A stretch of 64,000 bases of DNA from an uncultured Candidatus Saccharibacteria bacterium (GTDB lineage Bacteria; Patescibacteriota; Dojkabacteria; J137). Positions within the stretch are counted from its first letter, which is position 1, and each line of letters begins with the position of its first letter. The notes below the pieces were generated by a model, which saw only the letters and a list, made by a program, of their open reading frames with translations, ran no database searches and was not told the origin of the DNA. Below, one piece after another: positions 3,616 through 61,282 of the stretch. The translations under genes were made by a program, and so were the position numbers. The stretch is from the NCBI GenBank assembly GCA_964414295.1, contig CAYPVU010000010.1, positions 6,937-70,936 on the forward strand, written 5' to 3'.

Positions 3616-4899
3616 GTGCTAATGTCAATAATTTCAGAAGATAAACAAAAAGTAAGAAACCTGGTAGAGCAGGGTAAAAAACAGGGATACCTTACACATG
3701 ACGACATTTTAGACGTTTTTCCAGAGGTTGAAGATAATTTAAATTTATTAGAATACATAATAACAAGCCTTCAAGATGCTGACATTGAATTAATTGAACC
3801 TTTAGAAGATGCTGAGTATAAATACATGGCTGGAGCAGCAAGTAAAATGTCTTTTGAAGAAAAGATTAGAATTTTAAAGCAAATAAAATCTCATGTAAGT
3901 ACTGATCCGATTAGAGCATACCTACAAGAAATCGGTAAAATTCCATTACTAAGTGCAGAAGAGGAAGTTATTTTAGCTAAAAGAATAGAGGATGCAGAAG
4001 CTGAATTCTTAAAGGTTATTCCAGAAATTGCTGAAAAAAACATTGATCCAATATACGAAAAGGCAGCAAAAATAATCTCTAAAGGTACAAAAAAGAATCC
4101 AAGTATAGAAGCATCTAAAAAAAGAATTATTGAAAAAGATAAAAGATTCTTAAATGAAAAAATGAAGCTTGGAGTAGAAGCTAAGCATTTATTAACTACC
4201 GCTAACTTAAGACTTGTAGTTTCTATTGCAAAAAACTATCTAAAAAGAGGTTTAGACTTATTAGACTTAATCCAGGAGGGTAATTTAGGTTTAATGAGAG
4301 CAGTAGATAAGTTTGAATACAGAAAAGGATTTAAATTTTCTACTTATGCTACCTGGTGGATTAGACAGGCTATTACAAGAGCAATTGCTGATCAGGCAAG
4401 AACAATCAGAGTGCCTGTTCATATGATTGAAACTATTAATAAGTTAAGTAAAGTTTCTTCTCAGTTAGCTGCAAAATTAGGTAGAAAACCTACCCCAAAA
4501 GAAATTGCAGATGAGATGGGATTATCAATACAAAAAGTTAATGAAATTATTAAAATTGCTCAAAAGCCTCAATCTTTAGAAGCACCTATTGGTGATGAAT
4601 CAGATGCAAGTTCATTAAGTGATATTATTGCAGATGAATACACTGCATCACCTCAGGAATTAGCAACATGGTCATATTTAAAGAAGCAAATCAATGAGAT
4701 TTTAGGAAACTTATCAGACCGAGAAAGAAAAGTATTGGAATTAAGATTTGGATTAAGAGATGGAGTAGCTAGAACACTAGAAGAAGTAGGACATGAATTT
4801 AATGTAACAAGAGAAAGAATTAGACAAATTGAAGCTAAAGCTTTAAGAAGAATTAAAAGTGACGAAATTGCTCAGGCATTAAGAGATTATTTAAACTAA
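3616..4899 (+). CDS. rpoD: RNA polymerase primary sigma factor (sigma-70)
   Basis: Regions 2-4 are present (DLIQEGNLGLMRAVDKFEYRKGFKFSTYATWWIRQAITRAIADQARTIRVP); region 4 HTH (EEVGHEFNVTRERIRQIEAKALRRI). Confidence 0.95.
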   Translation: MLMSIISEDKQKVRNLVEQGKKQGYLTHDDILDVFPEVEDNLNLLEYIITSLQDADIELIEPLEDAEYKYMAGAASKMSFEEKIRILKQIKSHVSTDPIRAYLQEIGKIPLLSAEEEVILAKRIEDAEAEFLKVIPEIAEKNIDPIYEKAAKIISKGTKKNPSIEASKKRIIEKDKRFLNEKMKLGVEAKHLLTTANLRLVVSIAKNYLKRGLDLLDLIQEGNLGLMRAVDKFEYRKGFKFSTYATWWIRQAITRAIADQARTIRVPVHMIETINKLSKVSSQLAAKLGRKPTPKEIADEMGLSIQKVNEIIKIAQKPQSLEAPIGDESDASSLSDIIADEYTASPQELATWSYLKKQINEILGNLSDRERKVLELRFGLRDGVARTLEEVGHEFNVTRERIRQIEAKALRRIKSDEIAQALRDYLN

Positions 4900-4949
4900 G
4901 AGTATATAGTGGTAGACTAAATAGGAATATTTAGTTTACCACTTGTACA

Positions 4950-5804
4950 ATGTATACCGACTTACAATCTTCCAGTCAGGATAAGCAAACTTCAGAAAGA
5001 TATAGAATTTGGCTTTTGCAATCTCAATATGATTTAAAAGCTGCCGAAGAATCCATAAATGATAAGTTTTACGAATGGTCTTGCTATCAATCTGTTCAAG
5101 CTGTAGAAAAGGCTTTAAAATCTGTAATTATCCATGCCGGCTGGAGATCACCAAAGACACACAAACTTGGAGTCCTTTTAAGTATGTGTAATAGAGCAAA
5201 TGAAAGATTCAAGGAAGTTAAATTCAATTTTAGAAAAATTGAAGTTTATACATTTATTTCACGATATCCTTTTATTTATCCTGGTGAAAATAATGCTCCA
5301 CATGATTTAATAAATGAAAACGATGCTAGAACATGTTTTGATATTGCTACAAGTATGATTAGTAAAGTCGAAGAGTTCTTACAGCACAATACTCCAACTT
5401 ATCAGGATAAAGGAGAAATAGATTTAGAAAACTATTATTTCACACCAGAAGAAGTAGACCAAAGAATTCAAGGAATCATTCAAGAATTAACACTTGATTT
5501 AAAGCTAAAAGTAGAAAAGATTGTTTTATTTGGATCTTTTGCAAGAGAAAAATTGCACCCACGAACTAGTACAATGGACCTATTGATTGTTGCCCAAACA
5601 GATATTCCGTTTATTGAAAGAATTCAGTATGTAAGAGAATTAACAAAAGATGAAGAACCTATTATTGAACCCCTTGTATATACTCCTCAAGAGTTTGACT
5701 ACATGTTAAAGGATGAAAGAGAAGGGTATGTTGAAAGTGCTATAGATGAAGGTAAAGTTGTTTACGATAAGAATCTTGCACTAGACAAGCAGATTGTTAA
5801 ATAA
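4950..5804 (+). CDS. HEPN domain / minimal nucleotidyltransferase fusion protein
   Basis: N-terminal HEPN-like helix pair with an R-x4-H motif (WRSPKTHKLG). C-terminal NTase fold motif hG[GS] (VLFGSFAREK...MDLLIV). The usual DxD looks degenerate (only one Asp). Confidence 0.55.
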   Translation: MYTDLQSSSQDKQTSERYRIWLLQSQYDLKAAEESINDKFYEWSCYQSVQAVEKALKSVIIHAGWRSPKTHKLGVLLSMCNRANERFKEVKFNFRKIEVYTFISRYPFIYPGENNAPHDLINENDARTCFDIATSMISKVEEFLQHNTPTYQDKGEIDLENYYFTPEEVDQRIQGIIQELTLDLKLKVEKIVLFGSFAREKLHPRTSTMDLLIVAQTDIPFIERIQYVRELTKDEEPIIEPLVYTPQEFDYMLKDEREGYVESAIDEGKVVYDKNLALDKQIVK

Positions 5805-5827
5805 CTAATTCTAAATAAAGTTGTTGA

Positions 5828-5857
5828 AGCGGGCCTCAAAGAGGCCCGCTTTTGTGT
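5828..5857 (+). terminator. Rho-independent terminator after the HEPN-NTase gene
   Basis: Perfect GC-rich hairpin agcgggcctc-aaa-gaggcccgct followed by TTTGTGTT. Confidence 0.7.
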
Positions 5858-6004: not shown

Positions 6005-6859
6005 ATGAAATTTAATAAAAGACATTTAATCTTCTTACTTTTATTTGGTACAGCAGTTATAAATTTACCTATTATGGCTGCAGTTACTTGGACACAGAAT
6101 AATAATGATATATGGAGTGATGGACAAGTCTTGGTGAAAGCTCCTAGTAGTAGTGCAGAAGGATCTTTAAGAATATCATCTTATGCGGGAGGATGGAGTT
6201 CTGATAATCTTATTCTGTCCCTAAAGTCAAACCACGCACTTATAGAAACTTGGGGAGGTACCAAGCCGCTAGCATTACAGGTAGCAGGAGGTAGAGTTGC
6301 AATTGGTAATACTACACCTGGTGTCAAACTTGATGTTAAAGGAAACAATGCCTTAGGCAATAACCCAAACGTTGTTGCTGCATTTAGAGCTAATAATCAT
6401 GCTGGAGTTGTTATAGGAAGCTTAAATGGTAATACACCATATATTGGAGATGATCCTGGTGCAAGTTCTTCTGTAGGTTTATCCTTTTTTACCAATGGTA
6501 CAGAGAGAATGAGAATTAAAAATGATAACGGAAATATAGGAATTGGGACAACAAATCCTACTCAAAAGTTATCGGTAAATGGAACGATTTTAGCAAAAGA
6601 AGTTAGGGTTTCTACTTCCAGCAGTAGTTGGCCAGACTATGTGTTTGAGGAAGGATATATTCTAAAGTCTTTGTCGGATGTGGACGAGTACATAAAGGAG
6701 AATAAACATTTACCAAATGTCCCTAGTGCAAAAGAAGTAGAAGAGAAGGGTATTTCTTTAGGAGAAATGCAAAAAATACATATGGAAAAGATTGAAGAGT
6801 TGACGTTATATGTAATTGAACTGGAGAAACTAATTAAGGAATTAAAACCCAAATTATGA
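6005..6859 (+). CDS. Secreted fibre-like protein (Gly-rich beta repeats plus conserved C-terminal helical module)
   Basis: Sec signal peptide. Gly/Asn-rich repeats of the IGIGTTNPTQKLSVNGTI type typical of tail-fibre/BclA-like beta structures. C-terminal WPDYVFEEGY...HLPNVPSAKEVEEKGISLGEMQKIHMEKIEELTLYVIELEKLIKEL segment. Confidence 0.45.
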   Translation: MKFNKRHLIFLLLFGTAVINLPIMAAVTWTQNNNDIWSDGQVLVKAPSSSAEGSLRISSYAGGWSSDNLILSLKSNHALIETWGGTKPLALQVAGGRVAIGNTTPGVKLDVKGNNALGNNPNVVAAFRANNHAGVVIGSLNGNTPYIGDDPGASSSVGLSFFTNGTERMRIKNDNGNIGIGTTNPTQKLSVNGTILAKEVRVSTSSSSWPDYVFEEGYILKSLSDVDEYIKENKHLPNVPSAKEVEEKGISLGEMQKIHMEKIEELTLYVIELEKLIKELKPKL

Positions 6860-7449
6860 AAAGATTACTTTTTATAGGTGCTATATTTGCAATATTGATA
6901 TCAAGCACTACTCTTGGATTTCATTCCTACGCTCTTAATTCAAAATTAGAAACGTATAGAGAATTAAAAGAAAATATTAACTTAGATCTTGAGTCTTTAG
7001 GAAATTTAGAAAAAAACACTAGTAGACCTAAAAAGCTTAAGGATTTTAAAAATATTTATATTTTGTCTAAAAGAGATGTTGATCCCTACAAACATTTAGA
7101 GTTACTTATTATCCCTATGATAGATAATAAGGACTTAAGTGCTAGTGACATACTTAAGTCTTTCATAGCTAAGTATGTTACTACAGAATTCCCCTTTGAG
7201 GTTACAACAGAAAATAATGGTTCTATAGAAACTTCGTATACAAGCTTTTCGATTTTTTCTGATGGGGAGCATAGATCAGGAGAAAGATATGGCATTGTAA
7301 AAAAGAATAAAAAATACATTATTTTAATTCAAGGCTATATAAATCCCTTTGAGGGTAATAATGTATTTCAACATGAGTTTTTTAAATCGATTAGTAAAGG
7401 TATTAATTTTAATAGTAACAATAATGAAGAAGTTTTTTATAATCTTTAG
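6856..7449 (+). CDS. Hypothetical secreted protein
   Basis: ATGA start/stop overlap with the upstream gene; N-terminal signal peptide; no recognisable motif. Confidence 0.4.
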   Translation: MKRLLFIGAIFAILISSTTLGFHSYALNSKLETYRELKENINLDLESLGNLEKNTSRPKKLKDFKNIYILSKRDVDPYKHLELLIIPMIDNKDLSASDILKSFIAKYVTTEFPFEVTTENNGSIETSYTSFSIFSDGEHRSGERYGIVKKNKKYIILIQGYINPFEGNNVFQHEFFKSISKGINFNSNNNEEVFYNL

Positions 7450-8143
7450 CATATTGATTTGCTCACTATATCCTCAACTCAGAGTGAAAGCTGAACCTGT
7501 GTTCAGTTGGCCCTCTAATGGTTATCTAGGATGGACCTATACATATCCTAATGGTACTACAAATGGCCATAACGGAATTGATATTTGGGGCAATACTTCA
7601 GGTACATGGGGAAATGGTATAAGTCCTAATCAAGGAGATGGAAGTAGTTGGGATATTTTTCCAGTTAGTGATGGACAGATTAAATACTCGTCAACAACAG
7701 TAGCAGGTGGAGGTATAAGCATAAAACATTCTGATAATTTATACTCGTTTTATTGGCACGTTAAAGGTATTCAAGTAAACAACGATGATTGGGTAACGAG
7801 AGATTCCCTGTTGGGTCAAATGAACTACCATCCCAGTGATTCAAGCAAAATTGTTCACGTCCACCTTACGATTGCTGATTCAAACTTTGATTCCTCTGCA
7901 ATTGATCCTTCACCTTACTTTGATCAAAACTTAGATTATGGAAGTGAGGGATATAGCATAGAGTGGATGAAACCAGTTACTAGGGTAGTTAATTCAGCCA
8001 ATAATATTATATGTGGAGCTTTTGTAGTTCAAATTATTAATAAAACTATTACTGATAGTATTGATTGTAAGGCTCAAAACGAGATAATATTATCTCCAGA
8101 GACAAGAATCTTTAGTGGTAGTAGTAGATTCTATATAAACTAA
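7424..8143 (+). CDS. M23-family (LytM-like) metallopeptidase, secreted
   Basis: HxxxD (HNGIDIW) and HxH (VHVHLT) zinc-ligand motifs. Signal peptide begins at the internal Met (MKKFFIIFSILICSLYP), so the start is moved from the 7349 ORF start to 7424. Confidence 0.65.
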   Translation: MKKFFIIFSILICSLYPQLRVKAEPVFSWPSNGYLGWTYTYPNGTTNGHNGIDIWGNTSGTWGNGISPNQGDGSSWDIFPVSDGQIKYSSTTVAGGGISIKHSDNLYSFYWHVKGIQVNNDDWVTRDSLLGQMNYHPSDSSKIVHVHLTIADSNFDSSAIDPSPYFDQNLDYGSEGYSIEWMKPVTRVVNSANNIICGAFVVQIINKTITDSIDCKAQNEIILSPETRIFSGSSRFYIN

Positions 8144-8159
8144 TTATTAAATAATATTC

Positions 8160-8801
8160 ATGAGGAAGTTTGTTATCTTATCTGCTGGGGTTTTAGTGAT
8201 TGTAGCATCGATTACTACTTATGTACTTTTAAATAGAAATCCTGAACAAACGGATATTAATATTACAACAAGTAACAATACTTATGAATTTAGTAATTTT
8301 TTTGATCTATCATTAGATAAGAGATCGGTGAATACATTAGCAATTGAAGTACCTTCAAGATATAAAGCTAATCAACATTCAAATTATGTACTAAGTATTG
8401 AAGATGAAAATGTTCAACTAATATTAATTAATCCAGGTACAGAAGCTTTTAGCTTTTATACACTAAAAAGCAATGATGGATCTACTGTAAAGGCAAATGA
8501 CTACTTTAATGGAGATTTAATAAAATTTTTAGATAGAGGCGAATTGAAAATTTATAGTCGTGATAAAGATATCTTTAACTCTTTTATTTATCCAAATAAG
8601 TATTTCTATATAGAAGAAGCACAGTTAAGTACTAACTCTTGTTCGGAGGAATTTGGTTGTCCTGGAGCTTCAATATTAATAGAGGGAGATTATCCTCTAT
8701 ATTTACTTTGTTCTACCAATTCTGAAAATGATTCAAATAATTGTGAAGATATCTTATTAAGTCTTAAATTTAATAGAGAAAATAGAGTAGAACAGAGATA
8801 A
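8160..8801 (+). CDS. Hypothetical membrane-anchored/secreted protein
   Basis: N-terminal TM/signal anchor; Cys cluster near the C-terminus; no known motif. Confidence 0.4.
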   Translation: MRKFVILSAGVLVIVASITTYVLLNRNPEQTDINITTSNNTYEFSNFFDLSLDKRSVNTLAIEVPSRYKANQHSNYVLSIEDENVQLILINPGTEAFSFYTLKSNDGSTVKANDYFNGDLIKFLDRGELKIYSRDKDIFNSFIYPNKYFYIEEAQLSTNSCSEEFGCPGASILIEGDYPLYLLCSTNSENDSNNCEDILLSLKFNRENRVEQR

Positions 8802-8816
8802 AAAACATAGATAACA

Positions 8817-8845
8817 AAAAACGGAGCCTTTTGGCTCCGTTTTAA
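8817..8845. terminator. Bidirectional rho-independent terminator between convergent genes
   Basis: aaaaacggagcc-tttt-ggctccgtttt hairpin flanked by A-run and T-run. Confidence 0.7.
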
Positions 8846-8864
8846 TTTAGTTATTATTCCTTTT

Positions 8865-10442
8865 TTATTTAGCCTCTTCTGTAGCCCTTAACTCTCTTAT
8901 TACGTTTACTTTAATTACACCAGGATAGTTTTGAGTTTCTTCAATCTCCTTAGCAATTTTGTAAGCCATTACTTTTGTATCTTCATCAGTTACTTCTTCA
9001 GGTTTTACAATAACTCTAACCTCTCTACCAGCATGAATGGCATAAGCTTCTTTAACACCTGTATGTTTTCTAGCAATATCTTCTAAAGCCCTTACTCTTT
9101 TGATATATTCTTCGTAAGAGTCTCTTCTTGCTCCAGGTCTAGCTCCAGAAATTGCATCTGCAATTCTTACTAATTCTGCTTCTATGTATTTAGCTTCAAT
9201 ATCGTAGTGGTGTGCCTCAATTGCATTATATAGTCTGTCATTATTTTTAAAGTATTTTCTAGCAACTTCTCCAGATATATGGTGATGTTGCTTACCATCT
9301 TCTGGTGCAACTTTACCAATATCGTGTAATAGACAAGCTAATTTTGTAGTTTGTACATCAGCTCCCATTTCTAAAGCTAATGCTTCCCCAATCTTTACCA
9401 TTTCTAATGTATGTTTTACTAAATTTTGGCCAAAACTGAATCTATATTTAAATCTACCTAAAAGCATTATTATTTCAGTTGGGAGATTATTACATCCAGT
9501 TTCGTAGGCTATATCTTCTCCTGTCTTTTTTATTACTTTTAGGACGTCTTTTTTAACTTTTTCTACAGTTTCTTCAATTGATCCTGGGTGAACTCTACCA
9601 TCGTCTAAAAGTTTTTTTAGAGCTAAAGCACCAACCTCTCTTCTAATAGGATCAAAGCAGGATAGAGTTACTTGATTAGGAGCTTCATCTACTATTAAAT
9701 CAACTCCGGTTAATTTTTCAAATGTTCTAATATTTCTTCCGTCTTTTCCAATAATCTTACCTTTCATTGCTTCGTCGTCAATTGTAAAGGTAGTGGTTGT
9801 AGTTTCAACTACATAATCAGTAGCGGAATTTACCATTGTTTCAACTAAAATCTCTCTAGAAGTTTCATCATTTTTGAATCTGATTTGATCTTCATTTTCT
9901 CTAACTTTCTTTGCATACCAGTCCTGTAAATCTCTTTCAACTTGGCTTTTTAGTTGTGCTTCTGCTTCTTGTTTTGTTAAACCTGCTATCTGCTGAAGTT
10001 TTAATCCTAAATCTTCTCTTACTTTTTGTACATCTCTTTTAGCTTGATCTAAACTTCTTTCTTTTGCTTCAATTGCGTTAGCTCTTTCATCGATACTCTT
10101 TGCTCTCGAAAGTAAATTTCTTTCTCTTTCGTCTAAAATTCTTTCCTGTTCTTTTAGCTTTTCTCTTACATCTCTAGCAGTAGCCTGTGCTTTGCTTTCA
10201 AGCTCTAAAGCTTGTTTTTCTGCTTCTAAGATTTTATTTTTAGCAATTTGACTGGCCTTTTCTATAGCTTGTTCTTCAGTTAGTGTTGTAACTGCTTTGC
10301 TTTTTGCTAATGCTTCTTCCATTTGTTTCTGCATGTCTATTTTTACTTTTTTATTCTGATTGAATAAGTAAAAGGCAGCAGCTCCAAATAATGTAGCCAG
10401 AACCAGCAGAACTGCCAAAACCAGCAATAATGCTACGTCCAT
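8865..10442 (-). CDS. rny: Ribonuclease Y
   Basis: N-terminal TM plus coiled coil, a KH domain (GKIIGKDGRNIRTFEKLTGVDLIVDE) and an HD domain (LACLLHDIGK); 525 aa. Confidence 0.9.
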   Translation of the reverse strand: MDVALLLVLAVLLVLATLFGAAAFYLFNQNKKVKIDMQKQMEEALAKSKAVTTLTEEQAIEKASQIAKNKILEAEKQALELESKAQATARDVREKLKEQERILDERERNLLSRAKSIDERANAIEAKERSLDQAKRDVQKVREDLGLKLQQIAGLTKQEAEAQLKSQVERDLQDWYAKKVRENEDQIRFKNDETSREILVETMVNSATDYVVETTTTTFTIDDEAMKGKIIGKDGRNIRTFEKLTGVDLIVDEAPNQVTLSCFDPIRREVGALALKKLLDDGRVHPGSIEETVEKVKKDVLKVIKKTGEDIAYETGCNNLPTEIIMLLGRFKYRFSFGQNLVKHTLEMVKIGEALALEMGADVQTTKLACLLHDIGKVAPEDGKQHHHISGEVARKYFKNNDRLYNAIEAHHYDIEAKYIEAELVRIADAISGARPGARRDSYEEYIKRVRALEDIARKHTGVKEAYAIHAGREVRVIVKPEEVTDEDTKVMAYKIAKEIEETQNYPGVIKVNVIRELRATEEAK

Positions 10443-50235: not shown

Positions 50236-50310
50236 AAATTTTAAATCTTTTTGCTATACTTTGCTTGCTTTTACAGCAAATCTTGAACATTAATAGTAAG
50301 TATTTTTAAT

Positions 50311-50384
50311 AGGCCTGTAGCTCAGCTGGTTAGAGCACGGTTCTTATAAAGCCGGGGTCCGCAGTTCAAGTCTGCGCAGGCCTA
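50311..50384 (+). tRNA. tRNA-Ile with UAU anticodon
   Basis: Cloverleaf AGGCCTG/CAGGCCT acceptor, discriminator A, anticodon stem CGGTT/AGCCG, loop CTTATAA (34-36 = TAT). 5' half nearly identical to the tRNA-Ile(GAU) in the rRNA spacer. Confidence 0.65.
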
Positions 50385-50481
50385 TTTAGAATATTTAGAC
50401 TTCTATACAAATTTTTCTCTAAAATCGATTAGTTTGCATCAAACCTATTACTACATTAAACTATAGAGTAAAGTTTTTTGT

Positions 50482-52544: not shown

Positions 52545-52619
52545 CGCGGGGTAGAGCAGTGGCAGCTCGTCAGGCTCATAACCTGAAGGTCGTGCGTTCG
52601 AATCGTACCCCCGCAACCA
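52545..52619 (+). tRNA. tRNA-Met (CAU), initiator type
   Basis: Anticodon loop CTCATAA; C1 x A72 unpaired end (CGCGGGG vs CCCCGCA), which is characteristic of bacterial initiator tRNA; CCA encoded. Confidence 0.7.
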
Positions 52620-52620
52620 A

Positions 52621-52653
52621 AAGCCCCTACATGTTTGTAGGGGCTTTTGATTT
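52621..52653 (+). terminator. Rho-independent terminator after tRNA-fMet
   Basis: agcccctac-atgttt-gtaggggct followed by TTTGATTT. Confidence 0.65.
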
Positions 52654-52701
52654 AAATCGCTTAAAATATTTTAAGTTTCCTGATAAAATCCATAAGCATA
52701 T

Positions 52702-52775
52702 GTCAGGGTAGCTCAGAAGGTTAGAGCACAGGATTCATAAACCTGAGGTCGAGGGTTCGATTCCCTCCCCTGATA
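52702..52775 (+). tRNA. tRNA-Met (CAU), elongator type (alternatively an Ile2-type CAU tRNA)
   Basis: Cloverleaf GTCAGGG/CCCTGAT, anticodon loop TTCATAA, T-loop TTCGATT. Confidence 0.65.
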
Positions 52776-52885
52776 CTATTTATATCTATTCGGCATTTAA
52801 GACCATTATTTCCAAAGAACGTTTTTATAATAGACGTCATAAGATATAATAAATGTAGTTCCAATTTAATTATTCACTTAAATCT

Positions 52886-61050: not shown

Positions 61051-61127
61051 AGGCCAATAGCTCAGCTGGTTAGAGCATTCCTCTGATAAGGGAAAGGTCC
61101 ATGGTTCGAGTCCATGTTGGCCTACCA
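61051..61127 (+). tRNA. tRNA-Ile (GAU), in the rRNA spacer
   Basis: AGGCCAA/TTGGCCT acceptor, anticodon loop CTGATAA, CCA encoded. Confidence 0.9.
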
Positions 61128-61204
61128 TTATCAATAATATTAATTAGTAATTAAGAATTTAATTTGCTAAAATTTATAGCTTTAAATTCAACATTATTAA
61201 ATTA

Positions 61205-61282
61205 GGGGCCTTAGCATAGCTGGTTTATTGCGCCTCATTTGCAATGAGGAGGTCAAGGGTTCGAATCCCTTAGGCTCCACCA
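61205..61282 (+). tRNA. tRNA-Ala (UGC), in the rRNA spacer
   Basis: GGGGCCT/AGGCTCC acceptor with G3.U70, anticodon loop TTGCAAT, CCA encoded. Confidence 0.9.

Follow-up and report, generated by a model that had tools for sequence, protein, structure and literature searches.

The 64-kb stretch of DNA analysed here, from an uncultured Dojkabacteria lineage (hereafter the window, to which all coordinates refer), carries a gene for a 284-aa protein that joins a PF05168-type HEPN domain to a minimal pol-beta nucleotidyltransferase (NTase, or MNT) domain, with the HEPN domain first. By its predicted domain content, the family belongs with the Class II HEPN/MNT modules (PF05168/PF01909), which Yao et al. 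(2020; PMC7641770) set apart from Class I, the characterised HepT/MntA systems. The first catalytic Asp of the NTase is replaced by Thr, and this replacement is a fixed character of the whole clade and not a quirk of the present gene. The gene is single-copy and vertically inherited in Candidatus Dojkabacteria (candidate division WS6, a lineage of the candidate phyla radiation, CPR). The protein is proposed, with an even chance of being so, to be a domesticated non-toxic cellular factor whose HEPN domain binds RNA or nucleotide and whose NTase-like domain binds ATP-Mg, with transfer impaired or altered.

The open reading frame (ORF) given by the initial annotation is present exactly, on the + strand, and the fused HEPN-then-NTase polypeptide described there is borne out by Pfam, which finds both domains in this order. 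The gene and the parts of its product are as follows.

4950..5804, + strand: HEPN-MNT fusion gene, ATG start, 284 aa (Pfam, homologue search, AlphaFold2, Foldseek)
4998..5387, + strand: HEPN domain of PF05168 type, aa 17-146 (Pfam, PDB profile matches, Foldseek)
5145..5162, + strand: R66-S-P-K-T-H71 loop (R-x4-H), from WRSPKTHKLG (alignment of the family)
5262..5270, + strand: R105-Y106-P107, invariant in 152/152 homologues, with Y106 as the conserved Class II tyrosine and candidate nucleotidylation site
5388..5444, + strand: variable linker, aa 147-165, of low pLDDT and conservation 0.36, the overlap site of the two genes in split relatives
5445..5777, + strand: minimal nucleotidyltransferase domain of pol-beta fold, aa 166-276 (PF18765, PF01909; Foldseek 2rff, 7bxo_E, 8xeo)
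5532..5537, + strand: G195-S196 nucleotide-binding motif within LFGSFAREK, G in 152/152 homologues and S in 110/152, the rest R, G or T
5571..5579, + strand: T208-M-D210, Thr at the first catalytic Asp with the second Asp kept (alignments to SDID of 9xbd_E and to the SDxD consensus)
5667..5669, + strand: E240, third metal carboxylate position, E in 147/152 and D in 2/152 homologues (consensus of relatives)

PF05168 is the sole Pfam family reported for the N-domain, at aa 18-142 with an E-value of 6.5e-24 and 84.8 bits against a cut-off of 22, so the profile searches that might have failed the HEPN fold uphold it. The HEPN half also matches ST0689 (1wol), TT1696 (1ufb), TM0613 (1o3u), and the human sacsin HEPN domain (3o10) in PDB sequence searches. 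In the C-terminal half, Polbeta PF18765 is found at aa 185-275 (E=4.8e-7, 30.3 bits, cut-off 26.9) together with NTP_transf_2 PF01909 (25.5 bits, cut-off 21), and the PDB sequence search returns the MNT chain 9xbd_E. In the AlphaFold2 model, built with 30 homologues as input (pLDDT 81.9, pTM 0.72), the N-domain is helical and the C-domain alpha/beta, with a low-confidence linker (aa ~147-165) between them. A Foldseek search of this model against the PDB matches 1ufb, 1wol, and 3o10 on the HEPN side, each with prob 1.00, and 2rff, MntA 7bxo_E, and 8xeo on the MNT side, in agreement with both folds that the annotation had proposed for checking by AlphaFold. The literature on HEPN domains in CPR/Patescibacteria and on PDB entry 9xbd yielded nothing relevant.

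The catalytic motif of the NTase half reads GS-x11-T208-x-D210. In the HMMER alignment, STMDLLIV pairs with SDIDFLIV of 9xbd_E, and the consensus of 91 aligned relatives is FGSxARGxxxxxSDxDLxVI; on these two alignments, T208 takes the place of the first Asp and D210 matches the second. The annotation had held that the carboxylate pair is reduced to a single Asp, which survives realignment, and no canonical GS-x9-13-DxD emerges from it. E240 lies in E-P-L-V-Y-T, where canonical relatives have D-x-L-V-Y-T, so that D210 and E240 make up two of the three carboxylates of active pol-beta NTases and the first is Thr. Motif counts were made over 152 distinct full-length fused homologues, down to 40% identity, in which T208 is Thr in 151 and Ser in one, D210 is present in 152/152, and S207 is mostly S or T. 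In Shewanella MntA, the corresponding set of D39, D41, and D71 holds two Mg ions, and the double D39E/D41E change abolishes AMP transfer while binding is kept (PMC7641770).

A word-indexed search found 177 homologues of 45-100% identity, all of HEPN-then-NTase order, and those with informative source names come from Candidatus Dojkabacteria/WS6 or the "Patescibacteria group". In an exhaustive profile search of 1.84 billion proteins, 12 representative clusters fall below 1e-30, after which scores drop steeply. The best matches outside the family are stand-alone HEPN proteins, stand-alone MNT proteins, and many NTase-first fusions; canonical SDxD is carried by all of these NTase-first fusions, as well as by three HEPN-first fusions outside the family (P0139, P0242, and P0265). 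Among fused relatives, the representative search most often gives canonical DxD NTase-HEPN fusions (~240-280 aa), which, like the rarer HEPN-first ones with SDxD kept, hold the same two domains in one chain. The scores of these DxD fusions do not exceed 120 bits, those of family members being 244-424 bits, and most of the fusions have the opposite order. In the stand-alone MNTs nearest to the present protein, the first position holds T, S, or E, in one case A, and across fused and split members this position is never occupied by a hydrophobic residue larger than Ala, the one Ala being in P0180. A search seeded from a split MNT gave a sharp division: T or S is found in 29/29 MNT matches at >=44% identity, while 34/34 weaker matches have SDxD, including Portnoybacteria and Staskawiczbacteria proteins. 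As a side observation, one 391-aa protein (P0128) on a 1.4-kb ENA contig has the C-terminal portion of PNPase running into a TxD NTase domain at a shared "PEKI"; if real, it would be a striking RNA-decay fusion, and it was set aside as a probable assembly chimera.

Among the 152 homologues, ~30 positions are invariant and distributed over both domains, and column conservation averages 0.65 over the HEPN domain, 0.64 over the NTase, and 0.36 over the linker. The close agreement of the first two values means that the NTase half is under selection as strong as the HEPN half and not decaying, and it indicates equal purifying selection on both domains. A functionless fused toxin-antitoxin (TA) remnant with a dead NTase is therefore scarcely credible: its sole support is the broken canonical DxD, against which stand 152 distinct homologues that are intact over their full length and range down to 40% identity, the invariant positions across both domains, and the fixation of the replacing residue T208 itself, a conservation pattern that contradicts a relic. 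Decay is thus not supported by the alignment, whereas a constrained, altered function is. The annotation had suggested an inactivated or repurposed enzyme, and it is the second word that fits the evidence; inactivation agrees poorly with a T208 fixed in 151/152 homologues and with two equally conserved halves. Pol-beta-fold pseudoenzymes such as OASL, NF45/NF90, and MiD51 keep nucleotide binding after losing their carboxylates. They resemble the present family in carboxylate loss with the fold under selection, but they are eukaryotic and unrelated in sequence, and here two of the three carboxylates remain, so that activity is possible.

The same conservation of the NTase domain, as strong as that of the HEPN domain, would also be expected of a genuine NTase that acts on a third-party substrate (a small molecule, an RNA 3' end, or a protein), with the HEPN domain as its substrate or nucleotide lobe, much like the helical domain of kanamycin nucleotidyltransferase, AadA, and GlnE, and with Thr208 tolerated as a metal or phosphate ligand. 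This is possible, although unlikely. In its favour, the first-carboxylate position is mainly oxygen-bearing (T, S, or E, apart from the Ala of P0180), the triphosphate-binding G-S and Ser207 are kept, and HEPN domains fused to MNTs have been described as substrate-binding domains (PMC3710099). Foldseek adds a weak structural likeness to ANT(4') 1kny and AAD(9)/AadA (E >=0.07, w/o sequence-level membership), in which a pol-beta NTase lobe and a HEPN-like helical lobe form the substrate site together; these enzymes, however, are NTase-first with a full carboxylate set, whereas the present protein is HEPN-first with TxD, and its domain order is opposite to that of all the enzymes named. A characterised pol-beta NTase with Thr at the first-Asp position was not found, and no conserved substrate-related genes were found near the HEPN-NTase gene across the family loci. 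Furthermore, many of the invariant polar HEPN residues belong to the generic PF05168 signature (QQxxEKxLK, H, and RYP) shared with stand-alone HEPN proteins.

In the HEPN half, H71 is present in 152/152 fused homologues, while R66 is found in 97/152 (64%); the R66-H71 loop lacks any Arg in 34/152, and 7/152 have no basic residue at position 66 or 69. The R-x4-H motif reported by the annotation is thus carried by the present protein (R66 and H71) but does not seem to be a family constant, and the canonical HEPN Arg appears to be dispensable in the family. The motif here reads R-SPKT-H-K-L, with the Tyr at H+2 missing. A conserved Tyr in MNT-associated HEPN domains has been noted in two studies (PMC7641770; PMC3710099), and the sacsin HEPN domain, also of PF05168 type, binds RNA (bioRxiv 10.64898/2025.12.18.694329). 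The HepT-type HEPN domain, AMPylated by MntA, that the annotation implied is not what the protein carries, as its HEPN domain is PF05168 "Class II" and not DUF86, and the NCBIfam MntA equivalog NF047752 reaches 16.2 bits against a cut-off of 60.

Class II modules, e.g., 1wol, 1ufb, and 1o3u, number ~9,600 sequences, in which no active RX4H motif was found and the MNT keeps GSX10DXD (PMC7641770). They share with the present family the PF05168 HEPN and PF01909 MNT families (both above cut-off here), the HEPN signature of QQxxEKxLK, His, and the RYP Tyr (Y106), and the MNT fold with G-S and the third carboxylate. The family fits Class II except for the catalytic motif, which is GS-x11-TxD and not GSX10DXD; gene order and fusion, Class II being MNT-first gene pairs while the present family is fused or consists of HEPN-first overlapping genes; and the mode of inheritance, Class II being multi-copy and sporadic in thermophiles and archaea, whereas the present gene is single copy and vertical in one CPR lineage. 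It is not a new kind of system, as "fusions to MNT" were already listed for PF05168 by Anantharaman et al., who also described HEPN domains fused to MNT as usually non-catalytic, with substrate-binding or regulatory roles that arose by TA domestication (Anantharaman et al., 2013; PMC3710099).

FhepTA of Shewanella, characterised in 2026, is a fused MNT-first TA of DUF86 type (PMC13000451), and a working single-chain TA could be its HEPN-first counterpart, in which the MNT holds off a toxic RNase HEPN domain by self-AMPylation of a tyrosine and/or by blocking dimerisation, until loss or proteolysis of the MNT frees the toxin. HepT/MntA and FhepTA likewise pair a HEPN-superfamily domain with a minimal NTase; as here, they interconvert between fused and split forms in nature, and a Tyr close to the HEPN motif is conserved. 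Several observations favour this reading: the domains are those of type VII systems and of the Shewanella fusion FhepTA (PMC13000451), natural fused and split versions exist side by side as in Shewanella, R-x4-H is present in this member with an invariant His and an invariant Tyr, G-S, D210, and E240 are kept, and there are weak PADLOC matches to the candidate defence MNTs PDC-S09 and PDC-M05A. Nevertheless, such a toxin is distinctly unlikely. The HEPN domain of Class I HepT is DUF86/PF01934 (or PF08780) with RX4HXY, while it is PF05168 with R-x4-H-K-L here, and the Arg is not conserved, 36% of orthologues lacking it; neither an RNase motif nor toxicity is known for PF05168 HEPN domains (PMC7641770). 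The MNT of HepT/MntA has DxD, whereas that of the present family has TxD, and the replacement of the first Asp counts against it, as even the double D39E/D41E change abolishes AMPylation by MntA (PMC7641770). The MntA equivalog score of 16 against 60 bits also speaks against it, and the toxin-first order reverses TA logic (PMC3710099). In addition, FhepTA is MNT-first and located on prophages or genomic islands, while the present gene is HEPN-first, single copy, and fixed in a core-gene block across a phylum-level lineage w/o mobile-element neighbours. The family therefore falls outside HepT/MntA and FhepTA by their defining tests.

In eight Dojkabacteria species genomes (L047-L054), the HEPN (140-153 aa) and MNT (116-151 aa) domains are encoded by separate genes, HEPN first, with the MNT gene starting ~60-70 nt before the HEPN frame ends. 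Additional split pairs are L057 (SxD), L140 (SxD, 58-nt overlap), and L141 (TxD, 8-nt overlap), and the split relatives overall have overlaps of 8-70 nt with T, S, or E at the first-carboxylate position. The usual order of HEPN/MNT pairs is MNT first (PMC3710099), and these HEPN-first relatives are the reverse of it. The split pairs of L047-L053 are orthologous to the fused gene by synteny. In a crude neighbour-joining tree w/o support values, the split L057 and L054 are basal and a second split group (L047-L053) is nested among fused clade-B members, and this occurrence of split forms both basally and within the tree points to two or more events of fusion or fission. The fused and split forms are interchangeable, and the fused family derives from the "Class II" two-gene kind of HEPN/MNT module, orthologous loci of which are still two overlapping genes.

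The order of genes in the window is ftsA, ftsZ, NUDIX, sortase (- strand), rpoD, the HEPN-NTase gene, four genes, RNase Y (- strand), and amidase (- strand), and two of these neighbours bear on the setting of the gene.

3616..4899, + strand: rpoD, primary sigma factor, a 427-aa ORF, the upstream neighbour and probable co-transcription partner
8865..10442, - strand: RNase Y (rny), the convergent downstream gene (Pfam RNase_Y_N, KH, and HD)

The first is assigned as rpoD because it shares 70-97% identity with genes that have Sigma70_r1_1/r1_2/r2/r3/r4 Pfam matches (L001, L003, L008, and L056). In clade A, the block ftsA-ftsZ-sortase(-)-rpoD-[gene]-rny(-)-amidase-parB-parA is kept down to ~45% identity (L029) and is also present around P0270, the most divergent fused member; clade B (40-48% identity) has recA-wHTH197-[gene]-rny(-). 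The annotation described a TA-like gene that sits alone, a description that gives way here to a fixed place in a conserved core block across Dojkabacteria, in which the gap to rpoD narrows to 4-19 nt in some members (L003, L011, L014, L025, L029, and L056). Integrase, transposase, phage, or other mobile-element genes were found at none of the family loci examined, and no second HEPN or MNT relative was found in the 64-kb window. Such surroundings are not those of a mobile TA module.

RNase Y is the most widely conserved neighbour; about three quarters of 54 family loci, from both clades, have it downstream in convergent orientation. An RNase Y-anchored scan of metagenome contigs recovered eight Dojkabacteria-like loci, most of them too short, with the gene in three, and the HEPN-NTase gene was found at 0/72 RNase Y loci of other bacteria, so the linkage is one of lineage synteny and not a general association. 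The RNase Y neighbourhood is thus a weak pointer to RNA metabolism.

Two hairpins flank the gene.

4908..4943, + strand: rpoD intrinsic terminator or attenuator hairpin, T-run lost, with 16-nt arms and a GGAA loop
5826..5860, + strand: intrinsic terminator of the HEPN-MNT gene, an 11-12 bp GC-rich stem with an AAA loop, followed by UUUUGUGUU

The 36-nt near-perfect hairpin that the annotation placed 5' of the gene is real, with arms that are 94% complementary, one G-U pair in the RNA, a dG of -25 kcal/mol, and z = -7.7, but it belongs to rpoD. The two nearest species (L007 and L008) have this hairpin with changes at several places in stem and loop; it still folds, and TTTTTT (T6), followed by the start codon, comes directly after it. 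In L001, L020, L021, and L024, rpoD is followed by other, unrelated GC-rich hairpins with T-runs, and relatives with a 4-19 nt gap have no hairpin. This comparison of the relatives' gaps identifies the element as the rpoD terminator, and an operator or regulatory element of the HEPN-NTase gene was rejected on the same ground. In the window, the T-run after the hairpin is degraded to CUUGUACA, and no promoter was found in the 50-nt gap between rpoD and the gene, where the number of scan matches equals the shuffled expectation; from these two observations, the gene is most likely expressed by read-through of a weakened rpoD terminator. The strong terminator claimed 3' of the gene is confirmed as a conventional GC-rich stem (5826-5852) and U-run UUUUGUGUU, with a dG of -24 kcal/mol and z = -4.5. 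Rfam returned nothing credible for either hairpin.

Taken as a mechanism, the domesticated cellular factor would have arisen from a TA-like ancestral module, and its two domains would act as one unit, probably a dimer by analogy with other HEPN proteins. RNA or nucleotide would be the ligand of the HEPN domain, which would not be a free toxic RNase, and ATP-Mg that of the NTase-like domain, whose transfer chemistry would be crippled or altered, so that the protein could be a nucleotide-dependent regulator or a slow self-modifier, e.g., on the invariant Tyr106. Read-through of the weakened rpoD terminator would tie the protein level to transcription of the primary sigma factor. A more specific version, unlikely as a whole, is a TA-derived, lineage-wide housekeeping factor made off the sigma transcript, in which the Thr-for-Asp NTase domain, a pseudoenzyme sensor that binds ATP but transfers inefficiently, gates the RNA-binding HEPN domain and so passes the nucleotide or energy status on to RNA turnover or translation.

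Several points weigh against the domesticated factor. Thr, Ser, and Glu offer oxygen ligands that can coordinate Mg, so the NTase may be fully active with unusual chemistry, and the invariant H71 together with R66 may give the present member RNase activity. Conserved gene order in small CPR genomes may reflect inertia and possibly be silent on function. Presence across Dojkabacteria is known from a scan of GTDB species genomes with two exact peptide patterns, which gave 49 loci, 48 with a full or partial copy and the 49th a 33-residue chance match; the records are titled Dojkabacteria, WS6, "Patescibacteria group", or with generic uncultured-bacterium names. Finally, every functional step is inferred; Class II (PF05168/MNT) was reported to be biochemically uncharacterised (PMC7641770).

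A number of other features were observed around the family loci and in the window. A protein of ~197 aa, with a winged-HTH at its N-terminus and a degenerate NTase-like C-domain that lacks G-S and reads DIDLLLIG or EVDLLVIG, is encoded directly 5' of the HEPN-MNT module, often overlapping it, in clade-B Dojkabacteria and two other lineages (L048:3235-3828; L005:5411-6004; L057:4405-5001; L141:1164-1763, all outside the window), and it follows recA in three loci checked (L005, L058, and L059). The protein has 1702 word-search matches, with ArsR/HTH in some sources. An obligate third partner was rejected for this gene, whose family is ~10x larger, is unlinked in the window's clade, and stays after recA; the link, recurring in three separate contexts, remains a lead.

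Between the HEPN-NTase gene and RNase Y, 6005-8801 encodes two unknown proteins, an M23 peptidase, and one unknown protein, with a called overlap of 100 nt between ORFs 6856-7449 and 7349-8143. Relatives of the first ORF (orf6005) were found in L008, L009, L060, and L061, and the spacing from the HEPN-NTase gene to RNase Y is ~30-90 nt in L003, L011, and L056. Just 3' of the RNase Y stop, 8809-8905 (- strand) has sub-threshold Rfam matches to SpF10 sRNA (30 bits) and sraA (27 bits), most likely the RNase Y terminator hairpin. Between ftsZ and sortase, the window has a NUDIX hydrolase gene (2221-2658), for which the other Dojkabacteria loci examined showed no counterpart in the same place; one weak match lies elsewhere in L025. 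On a 1.14-Mb Dojkabacteria chromosome (L001:964-2267), ftsA is called as two ORFs of 237 and 132 aa, either by a frameshift or as a genuine split. The window also has a tRNA-Ile with anticodon TAT (50310-50385), which is uncommon in bacteria, where AUA is usually read by a lysidine-modified CAU tRNA, and two tRNA-Met(CAT) genes (52545-52776). A tRNA-Ile(GAT) and tRNA-Ala(TGC) pair, the usual arrangement of the 16S-23S spacer, lies at 61051-61282, so an rRNA operon probably spans the window end.

The family is a clean case for asking whether Class II modules are toxins, enzymes, or regulators, as it offers a compact single chain, natural fused and split forms, a fixed core position, genomes of ~1 Mb, and a fixed catalytic substitution. 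If the ATP-gated sensor is true, it would provide the first functional handle on Class II (PF05168) HEPN/MNT modules, and the domesticated factor would be an example of a conflict system turned into a cellular gene in a reduced genome.

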